DNA of 62,886 nt, the filler included, from Kipferlia bialata (Eukaryota), in assembly GCA_003568945.1 (NCBI GenBank). It is 4 parts of 4 records of this genome, joined end to end, with 100 filler letters (N's around TTAATTAATTAA, not from the genome) between each part and the next. Parts side by side here need not be neighbours in the genome. Positions count along the whole stretch, not along the records: positions 37,921 to 56,143 come from BDIP01000022.1; 3 more parts are not named here. One strand, given 5' to 3'. The notes beneath the pieces are model-generated. The model searched no databases. It saw only the letters and a program-made list of their open reading frames with translations, and had not been told where the DNA came from. Position numbers and translations under genes: made by a program. Positions 1,611 through 62,886 of the stretch are shown in pieces; positions within the stretch are counted from its first letter, which is position 1; each line of letters opens with the position of its first letter.

Positions 1611-1646
<36 letters not shown>

Positions 1647-6197: not shown

Positions 6198-6231
<34 letters not shown>

Positions 6232-9200: not shown

Positions 9201-10486
9201 CACTGTAATACGTATAGGAATGAAGGGTAAGTGTCATACAATGTATGTATGATACATACACATGTGAACAACACTATTACCTAGATCCAGGACTGCCCTC
9301 TCTGACACAGCCACGTCACACATAGAAAATATATATATATATGTATCTATACATATACATACTAAGAAATATCTATATATACCATTACCTAGCTCCAGTA
9401 CTGCCCCCTCTGCCACAGCCATGTCCTCTATATTATATATATACACTAAGACTTTACTATATATAGTGCATATATACTACATAATATTAAGAAGTATAAT
9501 ACTTCCTCATACCTAGCTCCAGGACTGCCCTCTCTGCCACACCCATGTCATACTCCCCTCCCTCAACCTCTCTGTCTTCCTCTGTCTGAAGAGTGGACAC
9601 AAGAGCATGCACCCTAGTGATAAGTGCAATACGTAGTATAAGAGTATGGTATATAATACAATAGTATACAGTATTACATAGTTATATCTTCCTCTGTCTG
9701 AAGGGTGGACACAAGGGCATGAACCATTGTCGTGAGTGTAAGAGAAGGAACAAGCCTGAAGAGTTTTCGCAGTGTCTCTAAAGAATCTCATAAATATGAA
9801 CTGAAGAGTGGACACAAGAGCATGCTCCCTAGTAAGTGCAATACATAGTATAAGAGTATGGTATACTATAATAGTATATATACAGTATCATATGATATAT
9901 CTCCCTCTGTCTGAAGAGTAGACACAAGAGCACGAACCCTAGGGGACAATTATAACAAGTATGGAAATGTACTGATTGTATCAACAATATCAGGCCCGGG
10001 GCGGGGCGTGGGAGGGGGGGGGACACACACGACATACCTCTGTGTCAAGGTCCTGAAAGACACATCGGGATCGGCTGAGTGAGAGGGAATGGAGTATATG
10101 CAAATGGGTATACCTTACATCCCAGTATATAGTAGAACTGAAAGGAAGGGAGAGACACACAGTACTCATGTATACTCTGTAAAAGGGGGAGGGGTTATAC
10201 AGGTTCCTGTGGCAGGAAAGGAGAGAGTGAGACACACACTCAAAGGAGACAGATGTGTGTTTGGGGGGTAAGGGGGGGGGGGGTATACACACACACAGAG
10301 AGACATACATGTATACATACCTGGTCTCCTGATGTCAGGCTCAGGCACAGGGCCCGGTTCTTCTGAGTGTCAGAAGAACAAATCAGTACCAAGTCATATT
10401 CATACATGTGCAAGAGACAATACTTCTATATGATAACTCAATACCAAGTATATAAACACTTAATATACTGCACAACACTCACCCAT
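912..10486 (-). CDS. Large multi-exon hypothetical protein, possibly with degenerate Kelch-like segments
   Basis: Many GC-richer exons bounded by GT..CTMACCCYAG, e.g. RHFFKSEENLTAFHSLLE, DIITALADSADDEKQAVIRHPIFEYVLDPAR, NYDMVVNGPVLAELLAQGISNLGDKPWWTPF, LKMHVLSLDTMTWEIV. Last exon ...DSAKGKGRKK* with stop at 912-914. Start ATG G|AA at 10486 is tentative; could be more than one gene. Confidence 0.55.
2054..2720 (-). repeat. Array of six copies of an exon 3' end plus donor site
   Basis: GCGTCATGCCCAYACACATGGCCAT core at about 2060, 2180, 2305, 2409, 2523 and 2686; only the last belongs to a complete exon. Confidence 0.9.
2578..2642. other. Assembly gap inside an exon-echo repeat array
   Basis: 65 Ns flanked by near-identical repeat units. 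Confidence 0.95.
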
Positions 10487-10871
10487 TAGTGACTGGGAGT
10501 AATGCCTTGGGTAGAGAACACAATCTACTCTTCAGAAAGATGAGCACAGTGATTGAAACGCCAGACGCTTATAGCGAACTTGGTGGTATATGTAGACTCA
10601 TCTCTGACCCAGAGTCTGTGAATATGACAGATATAATACTAAAGCTCCAATCATCCGTCTCAATTACCATCATGACGAGAGACCACCGAAATTCATATTC
10701 TATTCACGACTATGGTCACAAATGCAAACCAGGGAGAAGATCACATGCTCCTCAAGCTCTCTCTCCCCCTCTCCCTATGGCTCAGAGAACTTAGAGATCA
10801 CCCTCCAGCTCAGCCACCCTGGCCTCCAGCTCTCTCTCTCTCTCTCTCTTTCTGAGTGTATAGTATCCCTC

Positions 10872-13800: not shown

Positions 13801-14368
13801 GAATAAGGGTCTAGATGGGGGGAGAGAGAGAGAGTCATTGACATCGACAGAGAAGAAGGAGAGAGAAGGAGAGCGAGAGGATCTGGAAAGAAAGTACAGC
13901 CTGTAACTTGAGATAAGGTCTGGGGAGAGAATCATAGAGAGAGAGGGAGAGAGAGAGAGAGAGAGAGAGTCAGTTATATATTCCAATATCTAACTACTTC
14001 CAATATACTATGTACATGTATAATAGTCTAACTTAGTCCACAGTGGCTCCATCTCCTCCATGAGTGCCAGTGTCATATATGTATATAATAGTAGATATTA
14101 CTAGACATACATATACATACTAAATATACGTATGCATACTATATACACACCTTAGTCCAGAGTGGCTCCATCTCCTCCATGAGTGTCAGTTCCATATATA
14201 CATATATTTATAAACATACAGTGAAATGACCACTATATTACACAAAAGAGTGCAAGACTATCTATCAGTACACATACAATATATACATACCTTAGTCCAC
14301 AGTGGCTCCATCTCCTCCATGAGTGCCAGTGCCTCGGGCTGGAGGGTGGCATCATAGACCATCACGAC
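10872..14368 (-). CDS. Thioredoxin-fold (PDI-like) protein, 5' part missing
   Basis: Phase-consistent exons: VVMVYDATLQPEALALMEEMEPLWTK / VTGCAFFSVDVNDPENVPYVSNMPQLPMLFVG / TEQLPVLLSISCPDCKQ (CxxC) / FDINASKVASNLVDNTLGYSLQCDKD. Coiled-coil C-terminus ...ARVAELEGDL*. Confidence 0.6.
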
Positions 14369-14623
14369 CTAGGGATAAGATATACACACATATATATATA
14401 CATGAAACAAAGAGAGAGAGAGAGAGAGAGAGAGACTTGGGCTGGAGGGTGGCGTCATACACCATGACGACCTGAGTGTTGGATGAATATAGTGGAGAGA
14501 GAGAGGGGGAGAGAGACTAAGGGTGCATCATATCTGGTAAGAGAGAGAAAAGAGAAAAGAAGAAGGGGGGGGGGGGGGGGGGGGGAGAGGGGGGAGAAAA
14601 AAAAAAAAATAATGAAAAAGAAA

Positions 14624-14654
<31 letters not shown>

Positions 14655-14760
14655 GATTATGGAGAGGGAGATACTGATACTGATACCGATACTGATGTTT
14701 AGAGTTATATCACGAGTCATCATCATGAGTGTATATACAACACGTACAGTAGGCCTATAC

Positions 14761-15159
14761 GTTCTGCCTTATCCTTGGTCTCCCTGTACATCTGGAACTG
14801 GGGGGTTAGATACGTATTCATATATATATATATATATATGTATGTATAAAGAATATACAGAGAGAGTATGTTTAGGGTATACAATGACTTACCTTTGGTC
14901 TCCCTGTACATCTGGAACTGGGGGGTGAGATAGATATGTATCATATAGCATGACATTATCCATCATACATACATGTGGGTGTATGTGTAAAGGATGTATA
15001 TCAATAATATGTGTGCTAACATGAAACAATATATAATACGTGTCATAAATACCTGAGTGAACAGGACAACGTCGACCAGACAGAAGTATATCTATTTACA
15101 CACTATATATATATGCATACATATATTCGGTATACAATTATTCTATATATACATATGGC

Positions 15160-15190
<31 letters not shown>

Positions 15191-15626
15191 CTGAGTGAAC
15201 AGGACCACATCCACCAGACAGAAGTAGATGCCGCTGATGCTGGGGGTGAGAGGCACAGATAGGAGGTGGGGGAGGCACACTTAGGGGGTGAGTGACATAC
15301 ATAGGGGTAGGGAGGCATAGATAGTGGGGGAAGGATAGCATAGAAGTCAGAGACAGATAAATTGATATATGATAGGGTAAGACATGAAAGGGCGGATAGA
15401 GATGGGTTATGGGTAAGGGGGTCAATGTATACTCAATAATATCCAGAAAGTCACCACTTTACCACTCATTATGGGAACACACCAAGGCATGGTCTAATAT
15501 ATATTCATCACTTTACCACTCATTATGGGAACACACCAACGCATAGTCTAATATATAATCTTCACTTTACCACTCACATCTGTGTTGGCAGGGCATTGGT
15601 CAGGATGGCACCTGAATGTGAGGGGC

Positions 15627-15665
<39 letters not shown>

Positions 15666-15937
15666 AAAAGGCATTGGTCAGGATGGCACCTGGTGGTAAG
15701 AGAAAGGGGAGAGAGTGAGTGGCGAGAGAGAATGAGGGAATAGGGTTAGGAGAGGGTGATATTGAGAAATGAACAACTCTATGAGATGGAGTTGAGAAGG
15801 AAAGACCGGAAGAAGAGAGAGAGAGATGCGACACTCACCTAGACAGTTTGTGACATCCCCAATGATCCAGTTGATGAGGAAGGCATAGGATATGGAGGAG
15901 ACGCTCTGCAGCCTAGGGATTAGTTGATAGGGGGGGG

Positions 15938-15982
<45 letters not shown>

Positions 15983-16937
15983 AGGCATAGGATATGGAGG
16001 AGACGCTCTGAAGTCTGGGATCAGAAGATACACACTATGAGCACACATAGGATGGGAGGGGGGGGGGGGGCAACAGAGAGAGGGGACTGCATAAGATATA
16101 GAGAAGACACACACTCTGAAGCCAAATGGTAAGCAGTGTACTGCAATGTAGACGAGTGGAGAGAAGGGGAGTGGAGGGTGTAGAATGTGGATGAATAGTA
16201 CTACTCATGTAGATATATAATGTGGGGTTGGGCGTAGAGGGGGGGGGGAGAGCGAGGGAGAACAAAGTAATATGAAGGATGAGGGCACAATGTCATGTCT
16301 AGGGGGAATAGATATATGTCATGAATGCATATACTAGGTATACGAGGAAGCAGACAACATAACAAAAGGACAGGAAAACGTCTTTCGGTCTAGGAGAATA
16401 CAGGCCCCACATTGTTATCGAGAGATAGAGAGAGCGAAGACTAAGTGTCCAAGGCTGGAAAGCTAGAGACAACGGTACGCAAGGGGGTGGAAGAGCTTGA
16501 AACAACAATGATTCGATGTGATAAATGTATGTATATGCTCCCTCTCACCTGTAGTTCTTGAGGATCTGTGGGAACTGTGCCACTATCCAGCACATGACTG
16601 ATAGCAGTCCACATGTGAAGGAGACTAGGTAGGCCACATTGCCAACCTGGGATGATATGACAGAGATTGCATAATACCTTTAGATATCTGTTAGTATATG
16701 TTGGAAGGGGGAGGGGGGGGATGTATACCAACCCAGTGACGCATACATGCTTGTATCTCAGTCAATATCCAGTAATGCGAGACATAAGAAGAGAGATCTC
16801 ACGAAGTCAGTGTGAATAAGAGTGAGAGTTATCCCTACTCCATCTACTGCGCATACCTCCACACATTGCCCCAGATACGTCAGCCACTCATAGTACTGTG
16901 CACCCCCACTGGTGTCACACTGCACCTGGCCCAGCAT
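14761..16937 (-). CDS. PQ-loop transporter (PQLC2/YPQ-like), N-terminal half only
   Basis: Spliced MLGQVQC...CVE / VGNVAYLVSFTCGLLSVMCWIVAQFPQILKNYR / LQSVSSISYAFLINWIIGDVTNCL / GAILTNALPTQI / ISGIYFCLVDVVLFTQ, which is a typical first PQ-loop repeat. No second repeat is seen before the poly-G tract at about 14565-14652. Confidence 0.85.
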
Positions 16938-17217
16938 ATAGGTTGAAGAGACGCATTGACGCACCGAGAAGATCAAACGCAAAGGTTCAGTGTATACCGG
17001 TATAAGTGGGATTCGAACCTGCGCACTCAATGAATAATAGAGTGTCGCAGCTAATACATATGTGTAACGCAAAAACTCCGATCGGATGCCGGTTCTCCGA
17101 TTCTTCTGTAGATTGGATTGATGGTCTCTTGTCCCCCGCCTTGGTAACCGCTGATCTCTCAAACACTACTGTTTGACCACATAATCCACCAGAGAGTAAC
17201 ATTGTGCAGATTTAGTG
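16938..17217. promoter_or_regulatory. 280-bp divergent intergenic region, probable bidirectional promoter
   Basis: Lies between ATG 16937 (-) and ATG 17218 (+); free of microsatellites. Confidence 0.4.
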
Positions 17218-20200
17218 ATGGAATCCGGATCTGGGCCAGTCATTCAGATGCCCAAACAAGACATCGATGCTTACATGGTATGCCCCCCCCCCCCTCCCTC
17301 TCTCTCTCTCTCTTACCATATCTAACATGTCCCTGATGTATTTGCTGTGTCTCACCCCAGGGCCCATCCTGTGGGAAGGTGAGGCTGCAGCCTTGCTCCA
17401 ACTTCTGCTCAATCCAACAGACAGCCCGCCAGTTCAGGGTGGTGCAGCTCTCTCACCCAGTCAAGTCAGTGAGCGAGGGGGAGAGGCCGAGTGAGATCAC
17501 TGGCATCAGCTGGGCACATGACAACCCCGGTGCATATGTTGTGGCATCACGTGCAGATGGATTCGAGGTATATATAGCAGTGCTCTGACTCAGAGTCAGA
17601 GTCTGACTCTATATTATGTGTGGACTCTATAATGTGCACAGAGTACATTAATACTCAGGACACATTATACTAGGGTTGCTGAGCACTTGCTCGCTTCTTG
17701 ACATTTCAAACAGATATAGTAAACTCAAGTATGATACCAGACTAGTATTACCAGTGGTATACATATTGGATCTCTAACTGAAACTCTGAAAACAGTCTCT
17801 CACGACACAGGTTGATGAGATATAGTAGAATGTATATAGCAATATATTACACGTATTCAAATATCCTAAGTCAATGCTTTTGATACCTCCTCACGACACA
17901 GGTTGGAAAGATACCGACCACTGAGGAACAACAGGAGTCCACGTACGTCCATTTATTGACAATATATAAAGTGTATACTTAACGGTATATGGATTGTACT
18001 GACACATGGCTCTCACTCTATATAGGGTTTCCTATCCACCTCAGTCATTTGGATGCGATGCCATTAGTATCACGTCGGTCAGAGTAATTATGTGTGTCCA
18101 GTATGACACTTCTTCTACATCAGATTGCAATGAGAACACACACACACCCATATACGTATATGAGCCTTCTGAATTACAGTTTAAAGACCATATATACAGA
18201 CTCATATAGAGTGTTTGTGTATAGAGTGTACCATTAATGACTCCAGTCCTACATTCACCCTCCCTGACGATCCCGAGATTGTCTGTATTGAGCACCATCC
18301 ATCCATCCCCAACTGTGTGCTTGTGGCTGGAGGGGACGCTGAAGTGTATTCCATTGACACTGTCAGTGGTGCTTGCGTCGGTCTTCACAAGGCAGATCAT
18401 CCAGGTATACTACGCATAAGACATCTACGATATACGTACAGGAACACTATACCATACTATACAATGTGTACAAGTCATAAATTTCAGGTATACAATGTGT
18501 ACCGTATATATGTAATACACTTGCTTTGTACCACCTTCCATGTATCATTTCTTGCATGAGTTCTCCCCTCCGCTCACCCTAGTTGTGGAGCTTGTCCTGT
18601 CCACTGCGACAGAGTCCAGTCCTCTCAGAGTATGCATTCTCTCAGGCACACACGTACTCAGTCTCTTGAAGGTGTGTCTCAAGGGTCCTGTCGATCAGGA
18701 GGGCATAGTGGAAGTGTATCCAGGGATGCATTCTCGTGACAAGACCCCCTGTACCGCAGCTGTGTTTGATCCTGAGAATAGGTATGAGACTGTATGTATA
18801 CATGTGATAGTATACTCGATACATACTATAGAATATATATGCCTCATAGAATGCTTGTGTCTGCATACTCTATATACACTTCAAGTAAGTTACTTGAAGA
18901 TCAAGTAACACTATTGGAGTGACAACAGTGTTCTGCAAATTCCAGTAGGTATCTGAGTGGTTGTGTCTGTACTCACTATATGACCCCAGTGACAGACTGC
19001 TGCTTGGATTTGGGGCCCATGTGGCCTCTTTTGACATTCGAACCGAGCCCTGGGTTGCACTGCATGAGAACACACTGTCAGAGGCTGAGGTAACTCCATG
19101 CATATACATGCTACACAATGCTGTGTGCCTCCACAGCTGTTAGGAACACAACGTTTTGCATGTTACCCGTTCTGTTGTAATAGTTGAAATCGTTCCCTCT
19201 CTCTATCTGGTTCAATCAGCAGGGAATGTTCTGATACTCATCCACAGGCTACTGTCACCGGAATATCCTTCTTTCCGGGTTCCCACGGACAGTTCGTTAC
19301 ATGTGACAGTGGTACGCTGGTACTGAGCAAAGACACCCCTATATGATAGGTATATGTACAACTATATCCGACTCACCCTAGCTGGCAACGTCAGTCTTGG
19401 CCATGTTGACACGGCAGGGACACTGGAGCATGTATACCACTCCAAGACACCCCTAAAGGTATTTGCCCCAATATATACACATTTATAGTATGTTGCATAA
19501 TAGATGATACACTTGTGTATATATCCACATACCATATCTCACTCAGTACGTGGTGGCCCTCCCCTCCCACTGCTGCTGTAACCCAGCTGAGTGTGGGGGC
19601 ACCGCCTCTCTCTCCCAGTCCCCCACCCTACTGTGCTCCCACAGTATGCTTCTGACACACACAGATGGCGCAGTGGAAGTCTACTGTGGCCGCCAGAACA
19701 AGGTAACATACACGCCTATTCTATGTATGTAACGGTACCTGACACGATCTCAAACCAGGCCACTCCCATTGAGACAAGAGCAAGCGAGTTCAGGAAGATA
19801 TGGTCGGGTCCTGTCCGCCTCGATCCGTCCGTCCTATCGTATTTCGCTGCTTCTGCCTGTGTAAAGACAACGCCTGTCAAGGACGGACACGGGACTGGCA
19901 CCCTACCCAATGGTGCACGGGCTACTGGCACCTGGAAGAGTGGCCTACTGCAGGGTCAGGGATCGTGTACAAGACTGGATGGTTCCACATACGTTGGCAA
20001 CTATGTCGACAGCCGGGAGTGCGGACAGGGCACCATGACCTACCGCTGTGGTTCAGTGTACACGGGTGAGTGGAAGGACGGGGTGAGAAGTGGACGTGGC
20101 AAGACGGACTGGGGGAATGGGTGTGTGTATGAGGGAGAGTGGGCCAAGAACGTCATGTGGGGACAGGGACGGCTTACATACCCCACCGGCTGTATATATG

Positions 20201-21097
20201 AGGGAGCGTGGAAGGGCAACAAACAGCATGGGATAGGAAGACTGACATTCGAGAACGGAGACTACGTGGTGGGAGAGTGGAAGAACGGAGAATTTAGTGG
20301 CCCGGTCGACAGTGGAGATATGTCTCCACGCATTCGGGCGCTAGACAACACCACTCTTGAGACCATAGTAGTGGATCAGATCAACCTACCCTTCGGAGCG
20401 AGCCTCGGTGACCTCTCTGACAAGCACGGGCCTATGAGCATTGAGCCCCTCCACACCTATGTCCTCTACATGCCTGATATGGGAGAGACACGCCTGGCCC
20501 AGTTCTGCGAGTCCCTGCGCTCTCTCTCTCTCTCTGTCCTTGACCTGAGCACCGTCAAGAACCCCAGTGCTCTCAAGAGGGAGATGGCCAAGGGCCCCCA
20601 GGTGGTGGTGTCTCCCCACTATGTGATCAAGGCGAGACCTGGGTTAAAGATGCACAAGGTGCACATGGGGGTGTGGAGGGGCATGGTGAAGAGAGGGGTG
20701 ACTCCCAGGGTGTTCATGTGTCTGGAAGAGGTATAATGCTGGTACCAATAGTATTGTGTCCAATGTGGTGCTCATAGTGTAATATATATCCTATTTGCTA
20801 ACCCCCAGGCCCGTGTTAGAGAGTATGAGCAGCAGACTCGTGACAAGTACACCGACCTAGCCACCATAGTCAAGGAGCACTACGTGGACAAGGTGGCTCA
20901 GGAGACACAGGCAGAGATCAGAGAGAGAGGTGAGGGAGTAAAATTTGTCACCATTGGTCACACCAACCTATTCTATCTGTTTGGATATCCATATATACTA
21001 TAAGTTGTATATTGCACTGACCCCAGGTGACACCCTGCAGTGCATCCCACTGAACAGGTACTTCCAGGAGGTATGGCCTAGTACCATTGGGAAGTGA
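17218..21097 (+). CDS. Protein with WD40-like N-terminal region and MORN repeats
   Basis: Exons EITGISWAHDNPGAYVVASRADGFE, EIVCIEHHPSIPNCVLVAGGDAEVYSID and VTGISFFPGSHGQFVTCDS are WD40-like. A large exon at about 19759-20730 has repeated Y-x-G-x-W-x-x-G-x-x-x-G-x-G MORN motifs. Final exon GDTLQC...TIGK* is tentative. Confidence 0.75.
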
Positions 21098-21484
21098 GGA
21101 AGGGGTGGGAGTCCCACTGGGACAACTTAGACCACAAGTACTCGTTGCCATACTTATCAAGTGATATTTAATCACTGACTTGCGAAGACTGGATCGTTTC
21201 TCCGCACCCATGAACACATGAATAGACAAGACTCTTGTCACGAGAGTATATGTGGAGTAATAATTACTCAGTAATACCAATGCATAAGTGGATAATTAGC
21301 CGTCACGCTTCTGAGACGAATTAGACCCATCAAAGACTCACGAACTGCATCTATAACCTAAACACTCGACACCCAACCATTGTGGAAACAACTAAAAGAA
21401 CATACAAAACAGACACACAAAGAACATCTCGATACATCTCCCTGGTGGAAACAATCTCTCTCTCTCTCTCTTTCCACTTGACGT

Positions 21485-22716
21485 TCACCGCCTGGTGAGT
21501 GCAGAGAGACTGCCTCCCATGCTGTCTCCCTTGGGGTTAGATGGAATATTCATCGTTGTATAGTACAATAAGGATACATATATACTGGTGTGATATTGAT
21601 ATATAAACATAAATGTGTGTGTGTATGTGTGTATGTAGTGCAGAGAGGCTGCCTCCCATGCTGTCTCCCTAGGGGTTAGAAGGAAGAGAATGATACAAAT
21701 CAGTATATGGTACGCTATATACATAGACACTATATAAACACTATATAAACATATCTAGTGCAGAGAGACTGCCTCCCATGTCTCCCAAGGGGTTAGAACA
21801 GTGTATAATTGTATACTATACATGCAATATGCAGTATACGTAGTATGTAGTATGTAGTATGTAGAGTAGAAAACGATAATAATGTACAAAACAAATGGGT
21901 AAGGCATGGAAATGGTGTGGTGATAATGAATCGTATCCACACAATTCAACCAAATATGTGTTACAAATACGTACACATATTCTGGATGTATGTATAATAT
22001 ACACACAGAAGATGCCATACCTTGTTGCCCTTCTTGGATGATGTCTTCTTGAGGGCACTGGGGGTGAGAGAGAGTAAGAGAGAATGGTAGAGAGAGACAG
22101 AGATGCCCCAGAACAATTACATATGTAGACGTAATAATACCATAGAGTATCATAAATGTAAAATATACTATCCATACCTAGATGTGAGGTGTCCAGCATA
22201 TGCCCTGTGGAATGACAGTTTGAGACTTCTCTAATCATACATGGACTATATACTGAAAATAATTCATAATAGCAATATTGGAAATGTACCTTGATGTGAG
22301 ATGTCCAGCGTATGCCCTGTGGAATGACAGCTTGTCAGACAGGGAGTCACGCTGGGAGGACAGCTCTCTGTGTTCCCTAGGGATAAGCAATAAATATAGA
22401 AAGAGAACTTGACGAACAGAGAGAGAGAGAGCGAGAGAGTCACACTAGTGATCCAAAGGAATAAGTGCTATACTATGCACTGCACAAAACTAGAGAGAAA
22501 TACACTCACTTCTTGAGATCACTGAGTAATACACTGAGTCCCGATGCCAGTTGGGCCAGTTCGTCTCTGTTGAGTATACATACATATATATACCACTATA
22601 TCTACTTACTTCTTCAAGTCACTCAATAGTACACTGAGTCCTGATGCCAACTGTGCCAGTTCGTCTCTGTTGAGTCTATGGAGGTTGGAAGCAACGGGAC
22701 CTGGGGGCTCAAAGAC
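21485..22716 (-). CDS. 3' end of a hypothetical coiled-coil protein (truncated by contig end)
   Basis: Phase-consistent exons VFEPPGPVASNLHRLNRDELAQLASGLSVLLSDLK / KEHRELSSQRDSLSDKLSFHRAYAGHLTS / SALKKTSSKKGNK / GDSMGGSLSALTRR*. Confidence 0.7.
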
Positions 22717-22803
22717 CTGACAGTAAGTATATATATATACATAGAGAGAGAGAGAGAGGTTGGAGGCAACAGGGCCTGGGGGCTCAAAGACCTGAGGGTG
22801 AGC

Positions 22804-49077: not shown

Positions 49078-49186
49078 GGGCATGATTGAAATAGATAGAG
49101 GCCGATAATAGAGAAACCCAGTCAGTTATGAACACTCGGGTAGCTGAAACACTAATGGTTTATTACACGATTATTCACACACTGTT

Positions 49187-52100
49187 CTATCTCTTCCCAG
49201 CTCTGAGGAACCTGTCTAGCTGCCCCCCACCCCTGACATCACTGACACTCTCACTCTCACTCTCGCTGTCGTAGGAAGAGGACGCAGAGACGTCAAGCGG
49301 TGTGGGCTTAGGCACCACCACTCTACTCTGTGTGACACTCTCCCTCTGTGGCACTATAGGCTCCATGGATAGGGCCCTTCCCTTCAGAGGCTGCACTGAT
49401 CTCCTAGTGAAGTGGGGTGCACTGCTACGGGTACCTGGGGGTGCAGAGGCACGAACAGGGATGGACACTGCAATGGGGGAGGGAGGGGGCGAGGAGGAGG
49501 GGGAGTGTGTCTCCTGCTGGTAGGCGATGGGGTGGGGCATGGGGTTGTGGACAGCAGTGGCGTTGTAGCCAGCACCCTCTCTCTCTCTCTCTCCCACATA
49601 CACTCCACTTCCATCCAGTGCGTCCTGAGAGGACGTAGAGGCCATGCCCATACGTCCATAGACCCTCTCCCTCTCTCTCTCCCTCTCACTTTCCTGTCCC
49701 ATAGTGCCTGCACCATACTGTTGCTCACCCTGCGGTGGAGTGTGTATGACTGAGGAGGTGCGCACAATGGGTAAGGGGCCAGAGGTAGAGGTAGCGGCAG
49801 GGTGAGGCTGAGGGAAGGCGGGTAGTACACTGGCTCTACTCGGCTGTGCAGAGAGGGATGCCCAGGCAGCACTCTGCCTGGCACTGTGTAGTGAGCCAGG
49901 TCTCCCTCCCTCCCTCTCTCTCCCTGCGGGTCTCCCTAGGGTATAGGGGTCAGGGGAGTATGTGGGTAGGTACCCCTGTACAGGTTGGGCATTGTGGGGG
50001 TCACCCACACTGGACCACTCACTCTCAGAGGGCTCTCCCACCCCCACACCCCCTCTGCCAACTAGAGAGACTGCACCCTGGGTGACAGTGCGGGTGGTGG
50101 GCCTGGTGTCAGACACTGAGGTAGATACACACTGGCACACATATATATACATATTACAATACTGTACTTACTCTGATAGACGTATTTCTGCATTGAATTC
50201 CTACCTGGACCAGGGGCCTAGGGATCCCACACTGTACCTCTGCCTATACAGACTGTTGGTGTTGCTAACAGTGCTACCTCTACCAGGTGGCATGTTGACA
50301 ACAACACCACGACCTCTCTCCCTCTCTCTCTCTCTGTCATACGGGAACCGTCCAGTGTCCATGGAGTACCCACCTCTCTCTCTCCCCCTCTCCCCGTCCT
50401 CGCTCAACCCACTAGTGTCCACATCACTGGCTGTATAGCTCTCGTCAGAGGTATGGGCCGCATCTAGGCTAAGCAGGCCATAGCGCTGCTGAGAAGCCAT
50501 CTTCTGCTTCAGAACCTGAAATAAGGGTGTAGAGGGAGAGAGAGAGACATTGAGGGTGTAGAGAGAGAGAGAAGTGTTTACCTTGTTCTCCCCGAGTACG
50601 TGTCTCATGCACAGGCCCCAGTGGAGGAGGTCTCTCTCTCTCTGACAGCCTGTATATGAGTGAAGTCTACAATACAATCATATAAATATGCTGAATACTC
50701 CTATGGGAACAGTGTCTGGAGGAATATTGTATACGTTTGTGAATACCTGCCACCACGCTAGCTGCCACATCCACTGCCCTCTGTTGTGTATGTACTGCCC
50801 TGTACATATATACATTACATACCACACAATATATATCTTGGTGTATACATACCTGCCACTACACTGGCTGCCACATCCACTGCCCTCTGTCTCAGCTGGT
50901 ACTCCTCCCGGGACACACTGTCTGGGGGGTTAGACAAGGATAGATAGGAATTGATACGTGTGGGAAGAGAGAGAGGGAGACAGAGACAGGGAGAGAGGCT
51001 CAGCAGGCACTCCTCCCGGAGACACTGTCTGGGGTTAGGTACAAACAAGTATACACAAATATGTATTTGTTGACGAAGAGAGATACTAGGCCTAGTACTC
51101 TTCTACAACACAGTCCCTGAAGTATGAACCAATCAGGTATACATGTGAGAAGACTGAGGAGAGAGAGAGAGCCTACCTGACAGCATCTCAAGTAAGGAGA
51201 ACACTCTCCCCCGACACCATTGCTGACTCTCTCTCTCTCTCTATCACTCTATATATATATATATACAGATATACAATATGTATCCTATACCTGACAGCAT
51301 CCCCAATAGTGACAGCACGCTCTCCCCCGACCCCATGGCTCTCTCTCTATATGTATATACATATATACATATGTATCTTACCTGAGAGCATCCCGAGTAA
51401 GGACAGCACGCTCTCCCCCGACCCCATGGCTGATGCACATGCCGATGCACAGGTGGCATCCTTGGGCTGCCTGCCCCTCTTCCTCCTGCTCTCTCTCTCT
51501 CTCTTGGATGGCGACACCCCCCCTCTGCGATTGGAGGAGTTCTCTCTCTCCCCCTCCCCCTTGAGTATCGCTTCGTACACTATGCGGGACGTGTCCTTGC
51601 CCTCCCCCCCACCTATGGCTGTGGTGTCTAGGGTGAGGGGGGGTACAGGTGCACAGGCAGCCGGCATGGACTGGACAGCCTCGTCTGACACCTAGGGGTG
51701 AGGAATGTATACAAAGTCATATTGAGAATATACACATACATATATATAGAGAGAGTTATATCTGATACCTCCCCAAGGCACCCGTAGAGGAGAGAGAGAG
51801 ATGCGGCGGTGGGTGTGAACATCAGGGATGGACAGGGAGCTGCAGACTCTGGTGTAGACAGAGTACTGGCCCCCCATCTGGCACTCGGACTACCCCTCAC
51901 AGTGCTCTCTCTCTCCTTGTCTCTCTCCCTCTCTCTATCAGTGCTTCCACTGCTGCTCCCACCGAGTCTCTCCCTCTCTCTCTCCCCCTCCCTCCTCCCC
52001 TTCTTGGCGGGTAGACTACGTCGCAGCATCTGCATCTCCTCGGCATTGCTGCTCTTCAGGGCCTAGGGTTAGTGAATGACAAGTATTACAAATATGTAGT

Positions 52101-52503
52101 AATATAGACATTTGAAACAAATATACATGTAGGTATTTCTACACTGTACCTGCAGCTGTGCCTCCACCCACACATACATATATAGTATATACACATGTAT
52201 AGTAATATAGGTATATAGATACACCTGTATAGCAATATATGTAGGTAGTTCTACACTGTACCTGCAGCTGTGCCTCCAATGCTAGAGTATAGAACTACAA
52301 ATAGTTATATGTAGAGTAATACATGTAGTTATGCATACCTGCAGCTGTGCCTCCAGGGCAGCCACCAGGGCAGCGGTGTCATTGGACTTGACCTGGGTTA
52401 GAGATGATGAAAAGCATACAGCGCACATGTTCCGAACAGATGTATATCGCTGTTCATTCATGCATACCTGTGTATTGGGCACTGTCTCCACCAGCTTGCG
52501 CAT

Positions 52504-52535
<32 letters not shown>

Positions 52536-53376
52536 CTAGGTGTAGTATATCAATGTAGTATATATCTCCATACCTGTGGAATGGGCACTGTCTCCACCAG
52601 CTTGACCTTGCAAACATCTATATGTCCTCACATATGCATAGAATGTAAAATTCTGTATATATATATATATATATATATACTATTTCATATATATGGCTAT
52701 ATACCTGTGGTATGGGCACTGTCTCCACCAGCTTGCACCGCTTGGCAAAGGCTAGGGTGCTGAGGGTGAGACATATATATAGATAGAGAAACAATCCCAG
52801 TCAAGGAGCTATACAATGTTATCATACCTAATTGTCTCACTCAAGGATGTTTTCTCTGGACACACAGTGGGTATGACACACACACATATATATACTCTAT
52901 AGATAAGTGCATATACACATACTATACCTAATTGTCTCACTGAGTGATGCTGTCTCTGGGCACACTGTGGCTATGACACAGGTGCGGCAGTTGCCAGACA
53001 GACTGTTCTGTAGCAGCCTAGGGGTTGGGATTGAAGATACATTTGGAAGAATACACTGAATGGAGAGGATAATATATATTACACAAGAACACTTTATGCA
53101 GTTGCCACACAGCCTGTTCTGTAGTAGCCTGGGGGTTGGAAGAGTATCAAATGGATATGTAGTATGGTCAGTATATACGTTGTAAGCTTACTGTTTCTGA
53201 ATGGAATACCTCACCTATAAACACATACATTATAATTAGAATATATGTGGATATATATACCTTGTGAGCTTACTGTTTCTGAATGGGATGTGCTTGGTGC
53301 CAGGCTCGGTCAGGGCACTGATGACACTGCCTGGGGTGAGGGGTATATACATATATATAGATAGATATTAATATAC

Positions 53377-53409
<33 letters not shown>

Positions 53410-54533
53410 ATGTCATGGCACTGATGACACTGCCTAAGGTGAGAGAGAGAGGGAGAGAGAGAGAAAGAGAGTAATGTCAGGGCACTGATGCACAGACACA
53501 TGGATAGGGAGAGCAACCTCACTCACCGAGTGCCGACAGCGACTGGTTGATCCGCCTTGCCTCCTCCAGTCTGATGCCCCGGGACTGGCTGCGCTTGACT
53601 CTGGTGGGTTAGACACATCAATTAGGTGTATAATAATATATTTTTATATATATTCTGAGAGGCTGATGCCACGGGACTGGCTGCGCTTAACCCTGGTTGG
53701 TTAGACACATCAATTAGGAATATAATAACATATATATTCTGAGATGCTGATGCCACGGGACTGGCTCCTCTTAACCCTAGCCATCAGATAGAATAATGTA
53801 TATACACACACCCATATATATATATAGTATACTCAGTCGGATGCCACGGGACTGGCTGCGCTTGACTCTCGTGGATAGACACAGTAGTATATATACTGTT
53901 GACAGGATATATTACTATATAAACTAGATACACACCTCTCCGACCCAGCCAGGTCCACCAGTGTCAGGGTGGCCTGGGTGGTGGTGGGGACCTGCACATC
54001 GCCTCCCTCATCAACGTGTACAGTGCGGACACCCTCCCTGGGGTAAGAAGAGTATGTATACATGCATAGATTGAGAGAGAGAAAGAAGAATGCAATGAAC
54101 TTAGATACAGAGAGAGTCATTAGGATAGGGAGGAAACCTCCATGAAGTTTATGCACCTCCCCACAAACACCATATGACCGTTAGACGTCTAGTAGAGGAC
54201 AATACACAAATATACCTTCCCACTGATACCATCAGCACCGTATGACTCCTGGAAGTTGTGGCATTCATAGTATATGTATCATATATATATATATATATAA
54301 AAATATATATATACATGGATGTGCCTATATATGTATATACCTTCCCACTGACACCATCAATACTGTGTGACTTCTGGAGGATGTGGCATTCATCAATACA
54401 CATCATATCATACCATATATATATGTACATATGTGTGTGTGTATGTATATATACCTCCCCACTGACACCATCAGCACTGTGTGACTCCTGGAGGATGTGG
54501 CATTCATCAGGGTGGGGGCCATGGCTCTAGGGT

Positions 54534-54564
<31 letters not shown>

Positions 54565-56064
54565 GGAGAGGGGGAGGAAGAGGGAGAGGGAGAGAGGTGG
54601 CATTCATCAGGGTGGGGGCCACGACCCTATAGTAAGGGAGAGAGAGAGAGAAGGAGTGAGAAAGACGAGATGTGGCTCTGAATATAGTACATCCGTTCAA
54701 TAACCCCTCCTGCAGTGCGTGTAGTGCCTCTTTGGCATATAATCTCTCTCTCTCTCTCTAAATGCAACATATACTAACCATTACCTGTTCAATAACCCCT
54801 CCTCCAGTGCTTGTAATGCCTCTGGGGCAGACGTGACGGTGCGGGAGGTTAGACCACTCACATAGAAGCCAGTGGTATCTTCCCTATAGAGTGAGATAAT
54901 TGAAGAGAGGGAGAGACATAATCAAACATCTACCCACGTACACATGCATAACACAACACAAATATATGCATGATAGTAAGGTAACTAATGATAGTAGATT
55001 TAATGACAGTAAGGAAAAAGAAAGGGATATATATGCATACACGAGTCCATATGAGACTACCTCACTGCCAGTGGCACTGCCCCCTTGTCAAACAGGTCAT
55101 GCACACGGTCGAGGTAGATCTAGAGTCAGATACACATATACATACAGAGAGAGAGAGAGAGAGAGACATACATACCTGCAGGAACGAGATGATGACTGTG
55201 CAAAGGAGAAAACATATTCCACGTTGTTCATGTCTTTATCAAATCATTGATGAACAGAAACATATACAAGAAAACTCTCTACGAACCTGTAGGAACGACA
55301 TGCTGACCGTGCACTCCCCCTGTTCGACATCGCCCTCTCCCTCTCCCTCTCCCTCTCCCCAGCACTGGCCCTTATCTATCTGGTCGAACAGACACTGTAG
55401 GGAGAGAGATACAATGCCAGAGTGGGTGTCCTTGGCAGAGTGGATATTGGTCCTACGGTTAGATGACTATTATATACATATATATGAATACATATACATA
55501 ATTGTGTGAAGAGGGAGACAGAGGGGGAGAGACGCCAGAGTGGGTGTCCTTGGCAGAGTGCACGTTGGTCCAACGGTTACCTAAGTATGTTCATAATACA
55601 TGTTCACAGATACATAGAAACTGTATTTTAACATATATATATGAATATATATGGAGAGAGCAAACTAGCTCTGTATCTAATAGTATGGAACCACTGTCTG
55701 ATGTACTCCATGTCTCCCAGACAATATGTGGACTGTACATACTGTGAACACTATACATACATACATACATACTATAAGAAAATTCTCTATAGCCTACTAT
55801 GGATACCTCTGCCTGATGGACTCCTAGTCCACTATAGAGGTATACATACTGAATACTATATATACATATATAAATATATATTCATAGATGCACATACATG
55901 TATCCATACCTCTGCCTGATGGACTCCCTGTCCAGTAGACTCTTTATATATATATATATATACGCTATCGAATATACAATACATACACTTAGTGTGTAAT
56001 TGTACATAGTAGTGACGTACCTCTGCCTGATGGACTCCCTGTCCACTAGACCCATGGTGTATGT
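49187..56064 (-). CDS. Kinesin-like protein (N-terminal motor, low-complexity tail), 5' truncated
   Basis: TYTMG (after the P-loop), RAMAPTLMNATSSRSHTVL (switch I), LTLVDLAGSER (switch II), EARRINQSLSALG, HIPFRNSKLTR, LLQNSLSGNCRTCVIATVCP, ETISTLAFAKR. Confidence 0.95.
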
Positions 56065-56143
56065 CTGGAGGGTGAGGAAAGATGTATACAAACAGGTCGC
56101 TCAAGGTGGGGGGGGGGGGGGGGGGGGGGGGGGGAAAAAAAAA

Positions 56144-56243: not shown

Positions 56244-56515
56244 TTATAAACCCCGTTTTCCCCCGACCCCCCCCCCCCCCCCCCCACTCTCTCTCTGATA
56301 CATATATAGCATTCGTCACTCAGTGTTCAACACTGATTTCCTCCTATTCACCCCTGTACTTTCAACTCCCCCTCCTCTCTCTCTTTTAATAAAGGAGTCT
56401 CTTGTAACCACTGCGTAACAAGTGTTAGCTGCCCTCCCTCACACACTGGCATTATCGCTCTCTCGCTGTCTCTCTCTCTCTCTCTCTCTCTCTCCCACTA
56501 CACCCTTATCTCCAG

Positions 56516-57462
56516 GCATCATGTTTGGTCTCCTTGTCCTGGCCGGTGGCTGGTGGCTCATGGTGCACGTGCTGATGTGAGTGGATAGTATTATATACTG
56601 AATATATAGTATGTAGTGTATATAGTGTATGATATATATGTATGTGCTCATGTACGTACGAGTAATATTCCCTGCTTCCTCCTTAACTCCCCCTCCCTAT
56701 TCACTATAGTTACTGCAGGGTCGTCAGTATTATTGTTCCTCTCCCTCTCTCTCTACACTATTTCCCTCTATATCCTATTCTTAACGCATACCAGGGTATC
56801 ATAGTGATGATTCTCTCTCTCCCCCACTTTCTCCTTCTCTCTCTCATATTTCTATCACTATATATACTAATGTTTAGGGTCCTTGGCATCATAGTGATGT
56901 GTCTGTTCCCAGTGCCCATAGTGTATGGTATCATGGGTACGTTATGGACATATGTATGTTATGGGTATATGCATCTATATTTGTATGTATGTAGACATTA
57001 TTTCATACTGGAGGGGTAGAGAGATGAGCCCATAGTGTATAATGTTAGGGTACATTGTTTGTGTATATATACAGCAATAGGTATATGTCTCATACCAGTG
57101 TTCCGCAGTGTCAACAGTGCCCCAGACCCCCCCCCTCTCTCTCTCTCTTTCTTTCTCTGTATATATATGGCCATATATTCCTAATAACAGTCTTCCGCAG
57201 TGTCAACAACGCCCCTGACTCCAAGAAGAGCCAGAAGACCAAGAAGGAGGAGGTATCTATACAGATAGAGTATATATATATATAATAGAGAGAGATAGTA
57301 ATGCCCCAGACTCCAAGAAGAGCCAGAAGACAAAGGAGGAGGAGGTATCTATACAGATAGAGTGTGTATATATATAGAGAGATAGAGAGAAGGAGAGAGA
57401 GAGAGAGACTCCAAAAAGAGCCAGAAGACGAAGAATGAGGAGGTATAGAGAGATTATATATG

Positions 57463-57498
<36 letters not shown>

Positions 57499-57911
57499 AG
57501 GAGAGAGATTACAAGAAGAGCGAGAAGACGAAGAAGGAGGAGGTATGGAGAGTGTATGTGTCTATGTACGTCAAGCGCAAGCATATCGCTCTTTCCTATG
57601 TATCTTAGTATCTAGCATGGGTATTTCCTCGTACCTTGCCCACATGCTTGCTGTCAATGCTTTATATATATGTATCTCTATCTCTCTCGCCCTCTCTCTC
57701 TCTCTCTCTGAATCTATTTGTCTCTCACACCAGTACCTTGCCCATATGCGTGCTTGTGCATATACTCATATATATATCTATATTTATATATATATGAATG
57801 TATATATGTATATATGTAGTGATGGTATGTATCTAACCCTAGTACCTAGCCCACATGCGTGCTGTCAATGCTGCCAAGGCAGCTGAGCAGACAGCTGAGG
57901 ACGCTGTCTAG
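56516..57911 (+). CDS. 3' end of a membrane protein
   Basis: Phase-consistent exons GIMFGLLVLAGGWWLMVHVLM|VLGIIVMCLFPVPIVY|VFRSVNNAPDSKKSQKTKKEE|YLAHMRAVNAAKAAEQTAEDAV*. Confidence 0.65.
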
Positions 57912-58400
57912 AGAGGGAGAGGGAGAGGGAGCGAGAGAGAGAGAGAGAGAGAGAGTATGTAGTAGTAGTCTGCTGAGCAGACAGCTGAGGACGCTGTATA
58001 GAGGGGCTAGAGGGAGAGAGAGGGAGAGAGTATGGAGTAAGCGTACTAGGTCTAGTAGTCGGTAGTTAGAATTGAAGTGCAGGAATGCACAGACACCGCG
58101 TTTCACACGTTCCTCACGTTTCAGACGCTATGGTTAATAATAGAACTCATAGTATATTCGTGGAACTGGGATTATTGAATTATCAATATGAGTTCCCTCT
58201 TCTCTTAGATACCAAAAGAGAGAAGTAGATATCTAACACCTGATTCTCTCTATTCTTCATTGGTACACAAAACAAGTAACAGAAATTGGAAACATACACT
58301 GAAAACAACACACTTAAAGAATGTCTGTAATAGGCACTTGATAATAAGGCCCATGCTACAGCGACTGCAGCGTCTCAGACGTCTCGGGCGTCTCGACCGT

Positions 58401-59289
58401 TCACACCTCCGGGAACAAGTGCCTGAAGAGTGTTGGGTTGAAGTCTGGGAAAGACTTGAAACCTGGGTGTCAGCAACTACACTCATTTGGATAGGAATCA
58501 ATATAATGAACACATACTGTGCAGAAGTTAACATCCACCGCACTCAGGACATAGTGTAGTATATATTAGATAGATATAATAGGATATATATAATACAGTT
58601 CTCTACAATACACATACAAATTGTATAACATATACATATGTATATAATACCTGGGCAGTAGTTGACATCCACCACACTCAGGATGTGTTTTGTTAAGAAT
58701 AGTACAGTATATAATAACAGTATATACAATGAATACATAATGTAGATGTATATATACCTGGGCAGTAGTTGACATCCACAACACTCAGGACACTGGACCC
58801 TCCCTCTCCATCTCCCTCTCCCTCTCTATCTCCCTCTGTCTTTCCCTCTCTATCCCCCTCTCCCTCTCTCTCTCTATCCCCCTTCCTGTCCAGAATGACA
58901 TCGATGCCCAGCATGCTGACACTGGAGGTTAGAAATGTGAATATATATACCCATAGTGTATTTACATAAAAGCATATATATATGCACATATACATACTTT
59001 CATTCATCGGTACCAAGAATGGTGACATCAAAGGACTACTAGTCATAGATATACTCATACATACTCACTTTAGCCTGGCCGATAGGGCCAGACACGTCTT
59101 CCTAAGGACAGACAGCTCAGCCTGGGGTGAATAATAGGGGGTAGAAGATGAAGAAAGGGTGTAGAAGGAGAGAGAATAGTCTTCCTAAGGACAGACAACT
59201 CAGCCTGGGGTGAATATACTATATATTCACCACACACGCATACATATGGGGTGCAAGGAGGTATGAAGAGTGAAGGAGGATAGAAGTAG

Positions 59290-59335
<46 letters not shown>

Positions 59336-61469
59336 CACCTCAGACAGGTTGTGGGGTGTCACTGGGCTGGAGCGCATGAAGGACTGGGGGTAAGGGTAGA
59401 TAAGGGAACCATATTCAATAAGAAAATACACATATTCCATATATATATATCTACTCACTATTACTATATACTCACTACTGTTATACACAATACACATATA
59501 TATATCTGGAGCACATGACGGACTGGGTACAAGGGAGGGATAACATATACGTATCATAAGTGCGTACTATATATACAGATATTACCTACAAAGATATGGA
59601 GGGCAAGAATGATAGGGAGTATGGGGGTAGACTCTAAAAGAAATAGATGATAGTGGGAAGAACACAGAGGTCAAGGCAAATTAATATTCAATACATATTA
59701 CACATATAGAATATTCATATAGAAAATATATGTACCTGACTGTTGAATGGGACAGTGTCCACAGCAGGGTCAGAGAGTGATATATAATGTTACATGAACT
59801 CATAAAATAATACATTATAAGTGTAAGTTGTCTATATAGTCATTGTTATAGTGTCAATTAAGTCTCATACTGACCTGACTGTTGAATGGCACAGTGTCCA
59901 CAGCAGGGTCAGACAGAGTGCGGACTAGGGCCTGGGAATAAGGGCGTAGAGGGAATGCAAATCAAAAATATGGTATCCCGTACCTGTACTGGCTCTGACA
60001 CGTCTCCGCATATCACGTGCATACATGGACATATATATATATAAGTGTGTGTGTATATATACATACATATATTGCTTACACTTATACACTCTATGTATAC
60101 CTGCACCGGTTCTGACACGTCTCTGCATATCACGTGCATGGAGTCACCGATCATATAGACCTAAGAATGAGGGGGTAGCAATCTAATTGAGGGTGTATAC
60201 TCAGGGTGTATAATGGTGTAGTCCATGAATTGGCAAATGGGAAGGAAATAGATGTAAACTAATTTCTATATCTGACAACACTCTCACACCTTGTACACTG
60301 TGCTGTTCAGTAGGAAGGGCATGAATAAGGGTGTAGCACAAGAATATGGGTGTATAGGTGCAACTGCTTATAGTACAGTAAGATCAAATAGAATATATAT
60401 ATATACCTTGTACACTGTGCTGTGCAGTAGGAAGGGCATCGCAATGACAGCCTCCCTGCACCCTTTATCCTCTGTGCTAGACCCTTTATCCACTAGGGAG
60501 AGAGAGGTGTCGGCGGCACAGAGCTGCAGACTGGGTCTGAGTGGAAATTAAATAAACACGCATACATTCAGATATGCATATATATACCCATTTAGATGGA
60601 GAGCTGCCTACACTACAATAAAATAGGTATAATAATTAATATTGGCAATAATTATTAACATATACAATATATTCTACATGCACTATATATATACCTGTGA
60701 CTGATGCTGGGCCCACAGCCCCAGAAGGGCAATATATATATGTGTATATATGTAAATGTATGTAAATAGTAATAATGTATTTATGCATATATGAACTATA
60801 CATATATATATAGTACCTGTGACTGATGCTGGGCCCACAGCCCCAGAAGGGCTTGAGGATGGTGATGCCTGAGTGTAAGGGTGAAGAGGGAGATCAATAT
60901 GGTATACAAAGAGAAGCTAAGAATAATAGATTTTATGAAAACACTGGTGAACATAGAACAATGGGTGGGTGAACGAGCCCATGAAAGTTGAGAAGTGTCC
61001 GAATCATACCTCTGAGTTATCATTATATATGTATTTATACAATAAGTAATATACATGCCTGGGTATGGCAGGTTGACATAAGGTATATGTGAATTCATAT
61101 ACTCATATACAAATACTATTCATATGTATACATAAATATATGTATATATTAATATATTTATACACATATATACTAATGTATATATACTAATGTAAATATA
61201 TATACACATATATACCTGGGTATGGCAGGTTGACTAGAGGGGGTGTGGAGACAGACACACCACTATCTCTCTCCCCCTCTACACCCCTATTCAGGGTCTG
61301 TGACACATCCTGGACAACATCAGACAGGACTGTCGACATGTCCCTCCTGATGGTTAGATAAGTATACATTTATACACATATATATATATACATATATACA
61401 ATATATATACTTATACACAATACAGACAGTACAGTGGACATGTCCCTCCTGAGAGTTAACAATATACAT

Positions 61470-61500
<31 letters not shown>

Positions 61501-62013
61501 GATATATTGTATACTCATATGAACTGCAATATATATATGCAATAGTAACATGACGACATCAGACAGGACAGTCGACATGTCTCTCCTGACAGGGTTAGAT
61601 TCACAGCAATCTACACTTAGATTGTATATATACATATTAATCATAATAAGATAAATTATAGAGGACAGTGGACATATCTCCCCTTAAGGCTATATATGCA
61701 TTTATAAATATGCACATATATATAATTCATATTCTACTACCCAGGCACATGGACGATCTGGTAACATATGGTGGATATGCATATATGTTCCATAGAGAAT
61801 GTAAATTCATACCTATCCAGGAAAGGCTTCACACTCATGACTGGGTCCAATACCCTGATGCCCGGCTGGACGGACAGACAGTGGGAGAGGTCAGACAGGA
61901 GGTCCCAGTCAATACCTGATATAAGGGTGTAGAGAGAGAGAGAGAGAGAGAGAGAGAGGCAGTAGTAGAGGTCAGACAGGAGGTCCCAGTCAATGCCTAT
62001 GGTTGGTACTATT

Positions 62014-62046
<33 letters not shown>

Positions 62047-62586
62047 AACCTTCCTCTGGCAGACTGATGGTACAGGGGGATAGGAACATATATATATATA
62101 TACATATATATATATGTATATACATACTCACCCTCCTCTGGCAATTGAGACACTGGTGGGTGCTGCCTGGGGTTCTCTCCCTTGACCAGTGCTGACACAT
62201 CTTCTTGACTCTCAATGACCCCTTGACTCTCCTTGACCCCTTCTGTTGGGGAGGGAGGGCGAGTCACCAGGGCAGGTTGGAACACCCAGTCAGTCACCTA
62301 GAGGGGTAAGAGCGTTTGAGACGTTTATGGGTAACAAACTTGTAGGCTGGAACACCCAGTCACTGACCTGTAGGGTAGGTAGACTATGGATAATTACACA
62401 TACACATAGAACACATATTGCAAAGATATTTGAACATGATTATACCTTCTGCATCACGACATCACCCCTCCTCAGCATGACTCCTCTGCCTCTTCTCTCT
62501 CTCTCTCTCTCATCCCCTCTCCCCCCTTCTCTCTCCCTCTCCAGGTGCTGTCTGATAAGTGACTCTGGGGTCCTCACATGCATAAC
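58401..62586 (-). CDS. ITPK1: Inositol-1,3,4-trisphosphate 5/6-kinase (ATP-grasp) family, 5' truncated
   Basis: LPYPGITILKPFWGCGPSISHR, VIAMPFLLHSTVYK|VYMIGDSMHVICR, TVPFNSQ, VSMLGIDVILD...VLSVVDVNYCPG|FKSFPDF match ITPK1 motifs (KP...G...SH, KVY.IG, FG.DVI, IDINYFPGY). Confidence 0.82.
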
Positions 62587-62886
62587 CTGAGAGTAAAAGG
62601 GTGTAGAGAGAGAGAGAGAGAGAGATGCTCTGGGTCTCACCTGAAGAGTTACAATTGAGAGGGGAGGGGGGGATCAATGTACTGTGAGACTAGATATAAT
62701 AGAAATAGTAGAGATGCATTCGTAGAGATCTAATAGAAATAATGGATAAGAGAAGTAAAGCTGAAAGGTTCACGGTCCTTGGAAGGAAGTAGCAGACAGA
62801 GAAGGAGAGGTAGAGAGAGAGAGAGAGAGGGGTCGAAACAACCTCGGAGAGAGATATGGAGATAATGAAAGAGGGAACAAGGGGGG

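Follow-up and report, generated by a model that had tools for sequence, protein, structure and literature searches.

In the 62,886-nt stretch of DNA that we analysed (the window), introns of the free-living fornicate protist Kipferlia bialata carry partial copies, or echoes, of the ends of their own flanking exons. These echoes are real and occur window-wide; they are repeats of the mirage type, with signs in the copies of selection on both coding sequence and splice sites.

The gene models (9 genes and 92 exons in this one window) were curated by hand because an ab initio gene finder called several of the echoes exons. At least one echo adjoins 49 of the 92 modelled exons, and eight of the nine genes are affected. 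The initial annotation had tied the echoes to conserved motor motifs of a kinesin. This link does not hold: 11 of the 17 kinesin exons have echoes, including exons of the tail, and the spread over genes and exons of the window makes them a general feature. We counted 89 echoes, leaving out 10 of 99 with scores of 12 to 14; at score 15, a single hit was obtained among 340 pairs of an exon and a foreign intron, versus these 89 beside their own exons. The four contigs of the window, joined by N44-TTAATTAATTAA-N44 linkers at 22858-22957, 37821-37920 and 56144-56243, contain 48, 1, 22 and 18 echoes, respectively, which are thus dense in three of the four. A frame-blind scan yielded 138 local repeat pairs, none of which starts between 30 and 50 kb; the region 26000-50000 is nearly devoid of local repeats. 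Two genes are almost echo-free, the V-ATPase D gene (0/6 exons) and one at 24.5-25.8 kb (1/7); their introns are short, although equally TATA-rich.

Upstream echoes begin at the 5' end of the exon in 36 of 37 cases and never extend to its 3' end (0/37), and downstream echoes reach the 3' end in 49 of 52 cases, with only one of the 52 stopping 4 nt or less short of the 5' end. The splice dinucleotide is mostly retained (GT in 41/46, AG in 31/36). The echo unit has a median length of 107 nt (range 61-220), corresponding to ~30 nt of exon sequence and 72 nt of filler at 30% GC. Each additional echo goes with 100 nt more of intron length (rho 0.77), and echoes make up as much as ~44% of intron length in the modelled genes. 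At most five distinct copies are found beside a single exon. The five-copy array at 2054-2720, beside an N gap, is the most classical mirage within the window; its intron parts are partly near-identical, and its copy number is possibly unreliable. Echoes are also found behind terminal exons (10790-10830 and 57972-58001); these lie in the 3' UTR and reproduce the final codons, which differ by synonymous changes, and the stop. The echo at 10830-10790 has five such changes and retains TAA, in a place where use in splicing is impossible.

The echoes that were noted first lie in a minus-strand gene that probably codes for a kinesin (Table 1). All 17 modelled exons are open and all introns are GT-AG. 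Three exons match the Pfam Kinesin family (PF00225) singly, with scores under the whole-protein cut-off, and a deposited kinesin-like protein that contains PF00225 is 100% identical on one exon of the window. A second exon of the window is likewise 100% identical to a protein named from K. bialata. The P-loop motif is absent from the window, and the gene is truncated by the contig edge. The deposited protein corresponds to the 17-exon model apart from one insert of 11 residues. This insert is probably a gene-prediction error derived from the echo at 52574-52606, as the spliced contig described below is without those residues. ERERE or GEGE tracts arise from GA-repeat runs in coding exons (49165-52062, 58800-58883 and 62446-62530), and those of the kinesin exons are also present in the deposited protein. 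For the kelch-like gene, 24 of the first 25 modelled exons are found in the deposited protein, and the last one matches to its stop. The modelled exon 6825-6755 is not in the deposited protein; with its echo, it is included in the counts based on 89 echoes and left out of those based on 88. The segment 6654-6825 is exon-like, ends with TAG, is not part of the deposited protein and has its own echo with third-position changes in three of three cases; it is a possible alternative last exon. Two other modelled genes are putatively ITPK1-like and thioredoxin/PDI-like, labels to which Pfam gave no support, and a reading frame on the minus strand (CTCPQY...CPCKH, 22980-23800) may be SWIM-finger or Mutator-transposase-like.

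Table 1. Positions of the kinesin gene, its exons and echoes, and of the other echo-bearing gene groups
Feature	Position	Strand	Evidence
Kinesin gene, 17 exons modelled, 5' end lost at contig edge; echoes at 11 exons	49165..56064	-	Pfam, deposited protein, spliced contig
Echo taken as an 11-residue exon in the deposited protein model, absent from the spliced contig	52574..52606	-	contig interval of 344 nt equals echo-free model
Working RVKRSQSRGI exon, 74 nt	53527..53600	-	spliced contig at both joints, Pfam
GT-AG intron, 335 nt, contains all three RVKRS echoes, removed whole	53601..53935	-	contig joint 53600/53936
Near RVKRS echo with decoy acceptor CTAACCAACCAG	53663..53704	-	sequence
Middle RVKRS echo (CGC>AGG), CTGATGGCTAG just before	53747..53776	-	sequence
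Far RVKRS echo (CGG>CGT, AGA>CGA), GAG just before	53834..53867	-	sequence
Working exon ending DLAGSER, without echo	53936..54037	-	spliced contig, Pfam
Switch-I second downstream echo, decoy GT	54214..54268	-	within DNA unitig
Switch-I first downstream echo (3' part), decoy GT	54339..54396	-	sequence
Working switch-I exon, 72 nt, AG and GT	54455..54526	-	72 letters at that place in the spliced contig, Pfam
Switch-I upstream echo (5' part, VVAPTLMNAT), decoy acceptor CCCTTACTATAG	54596..54640	-	sequence
Four more genes, 48 echoes beside 46 modelled exons	900..22800	-	one gene compared with deposited protein
Two more genes, 18 echoes beside 16 modelled exons	56500..62600		exon models

The initial annotation had described three echoes of the switch-I exon and three of the RVKRSQSRGI exon with their codon changes, and all six are present on the minus strand as described. 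For switch-I, the upstream echo (54626-54596) reads (R)VVAPTLMNAT, with the changes A>V, M>V, AGA>AGG and ACA>ACC. In the first downstream echo (54396-54341), which contains the sequence LMNATSSRSHTVLMVSVG, all five changed codons are synonymous (CTG>TTG twice, AGG>AGA, GTG>GTA and GGG>GGA), and the second one (54268-54216) has four synonymous changes plus TCC>ACT (S>T). The three RVKRS echoes start at 53692, 53776 and 53867. The arginine swaps comprise CGG>CGT in all three, CGC>AGG and AGA>CGA, and GTC>GTT also occurs; an AGA>AGC change (R>S) at the end of the two nearer ones was missing from the earlier description. The near-perfect decoy acceptor that had been reported is there too (CTAACCAACCAG versus the real CTAACCCACCAG). 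In DNA run X1, which is possibly the source of the window itself, a single unitig spans 53476-54269 with no difference, at a depth of 463 (402-479 for the other listed pieces), and holds four of the six echoes unchanged. Between RVKRS copies, identical runs reach 24 nt at most. Given the zero-difference unitig at the depth of its neighbours and such short runs, the RVKRS array is not an assembly path error. The stretch 54270-54665 is masked as a repeat and is unbridged among the pieces listed.

The decoy splice sites are skipped in the main form of the kinesin mRNA. Run X2, taken as an RNA run by guess, yielded one contig of 3,412 nt that corresponds to the spliced kinesin transcript; rare or minor forms are lost in such contigs. 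It joins 53936 to 53600 over the three RVKRS echoes, and 53526 to 53329, bypassing a decoy at 53433. In all five intervals checked (139, 344, 72, 60 and 97 nt), its lengths equal those of the echo-free exon chain to the base, which indicates that the decoy at 53128, whose score equals that of its real site, is also skipped. For the switch-I stretch, masked in the contig alignment, the choice of the working copy rests on length and splice sites. Thus, the proximal decoy acceptors at 53692, 53433 and 53128 are bypassed, in line with the earlier suggestion that the spliceosome skips strong proximal acceptors. That suggestion came with two explanations, strict exon definition or regulated unproductive splicing. 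Without exception, the inner pair consists of the real AG and GT, with the decoys outside, and this geometry supports pairing of AG and GT across the exon. In contrast, regulated unproductive splicing is unsupported, because the one contig gives no sign of decoy use and the echoes are found window-wide rather than directed to motifs. The synonymous bias had been noticed but left unaccounted for; exon definition cannot be its source. In 53 of 70 cases, use of the decoy is predicted to introduce a stop within the insert; eight further cases would shift the frame, and nine would remain open. In the PQ-loop gene, a 25-nt copy of the start of the last exon (14893-14917) has both AG and GT and could be a cassette exon. 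At 21484-21680, the modelled last exon follows CTAACCCCAAG, and its upstream copy follows a better CTAACCCCTAG.

The differences between the echoes and their exons are mostly silent. Synonymous and non-synonymous changes amount to 99:57 over 88 echoes and to 76:31 over the 60 nearest copies (one per exon side), i.e. a synonymous share of 71% (76/107; bootstrap 0.61-0.81) and a pN/pS of 0.14, with a pS of 0.16. The counts are 51:21 for single-copy sides and 54:20 with kinesin left out. If only the working exon were protected, the share would be 2S/(2S+N), that is 0.38-0.47 for kappa values of 1-8, with 0.41 expected; simulated decay, trimmed in the same way, had mean shares of 0.40-0.44 and a maximum of 0.60, and none of 1800 simulations reached 0.71. 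Wrong reading frames gave 9:98 and 20:87. With alignments extended to the exon edge, the share is 0.60 of unique changes, above the null (p 1.5e-4 or less), and among multiply changed codons the residue is retained in 4 of 11 (CTC/TTG three times, and CGC/AGA). The share tracks gene constraint, with 38:6 in four genes, a group defined post hoc with frames mostly from their own open exon chains, versus 11:12 in the kelch-like gene. The two genes whose frames were checked from outside give 33:23 (0.59, p=0.0075), and the ratio for kinesin by itself is 22:11 (p=0.005). Decay is more advanced in farther echoes (23:26); these and the kelch-like gene are consistent with the decay null. The changes show no AT bias despite the 30% GC of the filler (synonymous 41:30, non-synonymous 16:20), and both directions occur. 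The number of echoes without any difference (26/88 versus 21.6 expected) does not separate the models.

The splice signals of the echoes are of working grade as well. At positions -12 to -4, the decoy acceptors are 59% identical to their own real sites (41% differ). They score 2.10, compared with 2.75 for the real sites (p=0.24) and -3.0 for other intronic YAG, and real sites randomly changed to the same extent score only 0.34. One-base slippage could lower the positional identity of the decoy acceptors with the motif kept. The intron parts are alike in 7 of 81 exon-echo pairs (over 40 nt of filler) and in 3 of 38 echo-echo pairs. Past the donors, identity is at background from intron position +4, and downstream intron parts are no closer than unrelated introns (p=0.26). 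The filler is unrelated in most of the 26 echoes with an identical exon part, and intron similarity does not track the divergence of the exon part (rho -0.17, p=0.12). The pairs with alike filler are also biased towards synonymous changes, 10:2 (Fisher p=0.39, small numbers); this is a failed prediction, as plain duplicates should be without silent bias. Because of the silent excess, the working-grade acceptors and the unrelated intron parts, the copies look like the ends of diverged working exons, unlike decaying dead copies.

From what we observed (the copies and how they are arranged, the fact that the main kinesin mRNA skips them, the excess of synonymous changes, the working-grade splice signals and the mostly unrelated intron parts), we propose, with about even confidence, that the echoes are retired ends of other working alleles, acquired through unequal recombination or break repair between diverged homologues. 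Alleles would differ by ~10-15% at silent sites, and their TA/GA-rich introns would be far more divergent, so that homologues would pair mainly via exons. Strand exchange starting inside an exon would copy the exon end of the homologue, its splice site and ~70 nt of intron. Rejoining out of register, by microhomology joining or by unequal crossing-over with an existing echo, would then leave the exon end of one allele working and that of the other parked ~100 nt out in the intron. Only products with an intact inner AG-exon-GT would survive selection, and whole-exon duplicates would be purged. The retired copies would decay neutrally and be displaced outward by later events, and the spliceosome would ignore the outer sites, likely by pairing, over the exon, the AG and GT that are nearest.

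The allelic diversity required for retired alleles is an assumption. The X1 contigs, which lose variants, contain no second haplotype at 90% identity or more over 49000-56140, and neither these contigs nor two metagenome scans yielded a donor allele. In these metagenome scans, no relative was confirmed among 181 protein pattern matches and the switch-I pattern had no match, a result that is silent on the existence of other isolates. Published context fits with retired alleles and is no test of them. In the respective reports, k-mer peaks of the short-read assembly suggest that K. bialata is diploid (PMC5874029), metamonads are described as devoid of NHEJ and as having retained meiotic genes, with sex unobserved, and fornicates as having two Dmc1 paralogues and no Rad51A (PMC8516963), and Dmc1 is reported to stabilise mismatched triplets (PMC6719624).

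The strongest competitor is that echoes are tandem duplicates kept as spare copies under weak purifying selection in a very large population, since deletion or gene conversion would sometimes turn an echo into a working exon end. With no need for sex, this would account for the excess of synonymous changes, for the retained splice signals, for the way in which the share follows gene constraint and for the stronger decay of farther copies, and it agrees with the 10:2 found where intron parts are alike. However, by a rough, unsimulated estimate, an exchange rate above 1/Ne and echoes lasting to 15% silent divergence would imply a neutral diversity of ~0.3 or more. Exchange between sisters should also make neighbouring intron parts alike, unlike what is seen in all but three of the 38 echo-echo pairs, and no collapsed form is evident among the DNA joints listed. 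We consider spare copies unlikely and prefer retired alleles, which explain the unrelated filler and the independently good acceptors in one step. Both routes need a large, very diverse population. That the echoes are classical mirages, i.e. junction tandem duplicates that decay neutrally, with a silent excess due to selection on the working exon alone, appears quite unlikely. The geometry and the median unit length agree with it, a few arrays are alike over the whole unit (2054-2554), and the kelch-like gene and the farther echoes are at the null. Nevertheless, it predicts a synonymous share of 0.40-0.44 rather than 0.71, alike intron parts rather than 7 of 81, decayed acceptors scoring 0.34 rather than 2.10, and AT-ward non-synonymous changes, which are 16 of 36 (p=0.0006).

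Selection on the products of regulated unproductive or alternative splicing might also keep the echoes coding-like. The decoys do score like real sites, their use would lead to a stop or a frameshift in the numbers given above, and AG and GT occur together in a few copies (14917-14893 and 52606-52574). This is very unlikely, however: in the intervals checked, the single spliced kinesin contig makes no use of a decoy, a transcript destroyed at a premature stop exposes no amino acids of the echo to selection, upstream echoes are without donors and downstream ones without acceptors, and the changes are also synonymous in echoes that follow terminal exons. Direct selection on echo peptides is implausible because a copy carries a single splice site and some copies lie in 3' UTRs. 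An assembly artefact, in which the assembler placed both haplotypes of a diploid one after the other, would yield synonymous differences as well, and the probable diploidy and short-read origin of the assembly (PMC5874029), the unbridged stretch 54270-54665 and the possible identity of X1 with the data behind the window are compatible with it. It is hardly credible in view of the separately assembled unitig that covers exon and echoes at unique-sequence depth, of identical runs of 24 nt, too short for fusing 31-letter-word paths, and of exons with up to five distinct copies. Three other origins were set aside. Within-chromosome gene conversion was rejected by reasoning, since it would preferentially erase silent differences; a single old hybridisation is unlikely, several exons having three distinct versions; and whole-exon duplication followed by erosion was rejected, as there are no downstream 5' fragments.

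The closest known kind of repeat is the amphioxus 'mirage', with a different pattern of divergence. As outlined in a later report (Canestro et al. 2002, via Ebner et al. 2010, PMC3087553), mirages are units across an exon-intron boundary in which AG or GT is duplicated. Both mirages and echoes are tandem units that span 5' as well as 3' boundaries, duplicate the splice site and leave normal splicing undisturbed, which for the echoes is seen in one kinesin contig. Unit lengths overlap (10-72 and 150-160 bp for mirages, 61-220 for echoes). In contrast, mirages are described at a few animal loci, whereas in this metamonad protist echoes adjoin 49 of 92 exons. Whole mirage units are 81-100% alike (BflGb6) and evolve in concert, whereas in echoes the exon part is 94% alike and the intron part mostly unrelated, so that the minisatellite-like similarity of whole units is not found. 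The word 'synonymous' is absent from the text of PMC3087553, and the silent excess reported here exceeds the decay model.

Other systems share some features. Vertebrate duplications by SDSA repair (Pace et al. 2009, PMC2671141) are likewise short and closely linked, some with exons and splice sites, but they are reported to derive from proximal DNA of the same chromosome and to number ~1,000 per human genome, whereas echoes are dense, bound to the ends of exons and seem to have diverged while selected for coding. Intron gain by tandem duplication (Rogers model, PMC4974935, PMC3087553) also involves an intragenic duplication that doubles splice-like sites. There, an exonic AGGT gives rise to a new intron, whereas echoes lengthen existing introns by ~100 nt each with the exon count unchanged; the kinesin contig matches a chain without any new GT-AG intron between exon and echo. 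Mutually exclusive tandem exons (PMC8373072, PMC5740500) are also neighbouring exon copies under purifying selection, but they are whole, have both splice sites and are used, whereas echoes are half-exons with one site, skipped where checked; whole-exon copies with acceptor and donor were not found. Tetrahymena exon arrays consist of whole, used exons and are not comparable (PMC6564038). A search of the literature on Kipferlia, in which 'mirage' was not among the words used, returned no description of such echoes, and the main text of the genome paper (PMC5874029) contains none of 'mirage', 'tandem', 'duplicat' or 'exon'.

Whatever their origin, echoes represent an unusual way for introns to grow, and they mislead gene prediction, one of them being included as an exon in the deposited kinesin. 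Each echo also sets a real splice site against a skipped decoy of equal strength at a distance of 100 nt, which makes it a natural test of exon definition in a protist whose introns are short and whose spliceosome is described as reduced (87/174 proteins; PMC6679479). If echoes are retired alleles, a single genome would hold tens of thousands of samples of past alleles (extrapolated from 89 echoes in 63 kb), and they would provide a handle on recombination in metamonads, cryptic sex and repair without NHEJ and Rad51A. More tentatively, and with doubts that outweigh our confidence, we suggest that exon ends may be renewed genome-wide from diverged homologues, the displaced allele being parked in the intron. 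In that case, introns would preserve in layers the traces of earlier alleles and of cryptic sex, in a group in which no sex has ever been seen, and the echoes would be tolerated because a reduced spliceosome would pair the innermost AG with the innermost GT.
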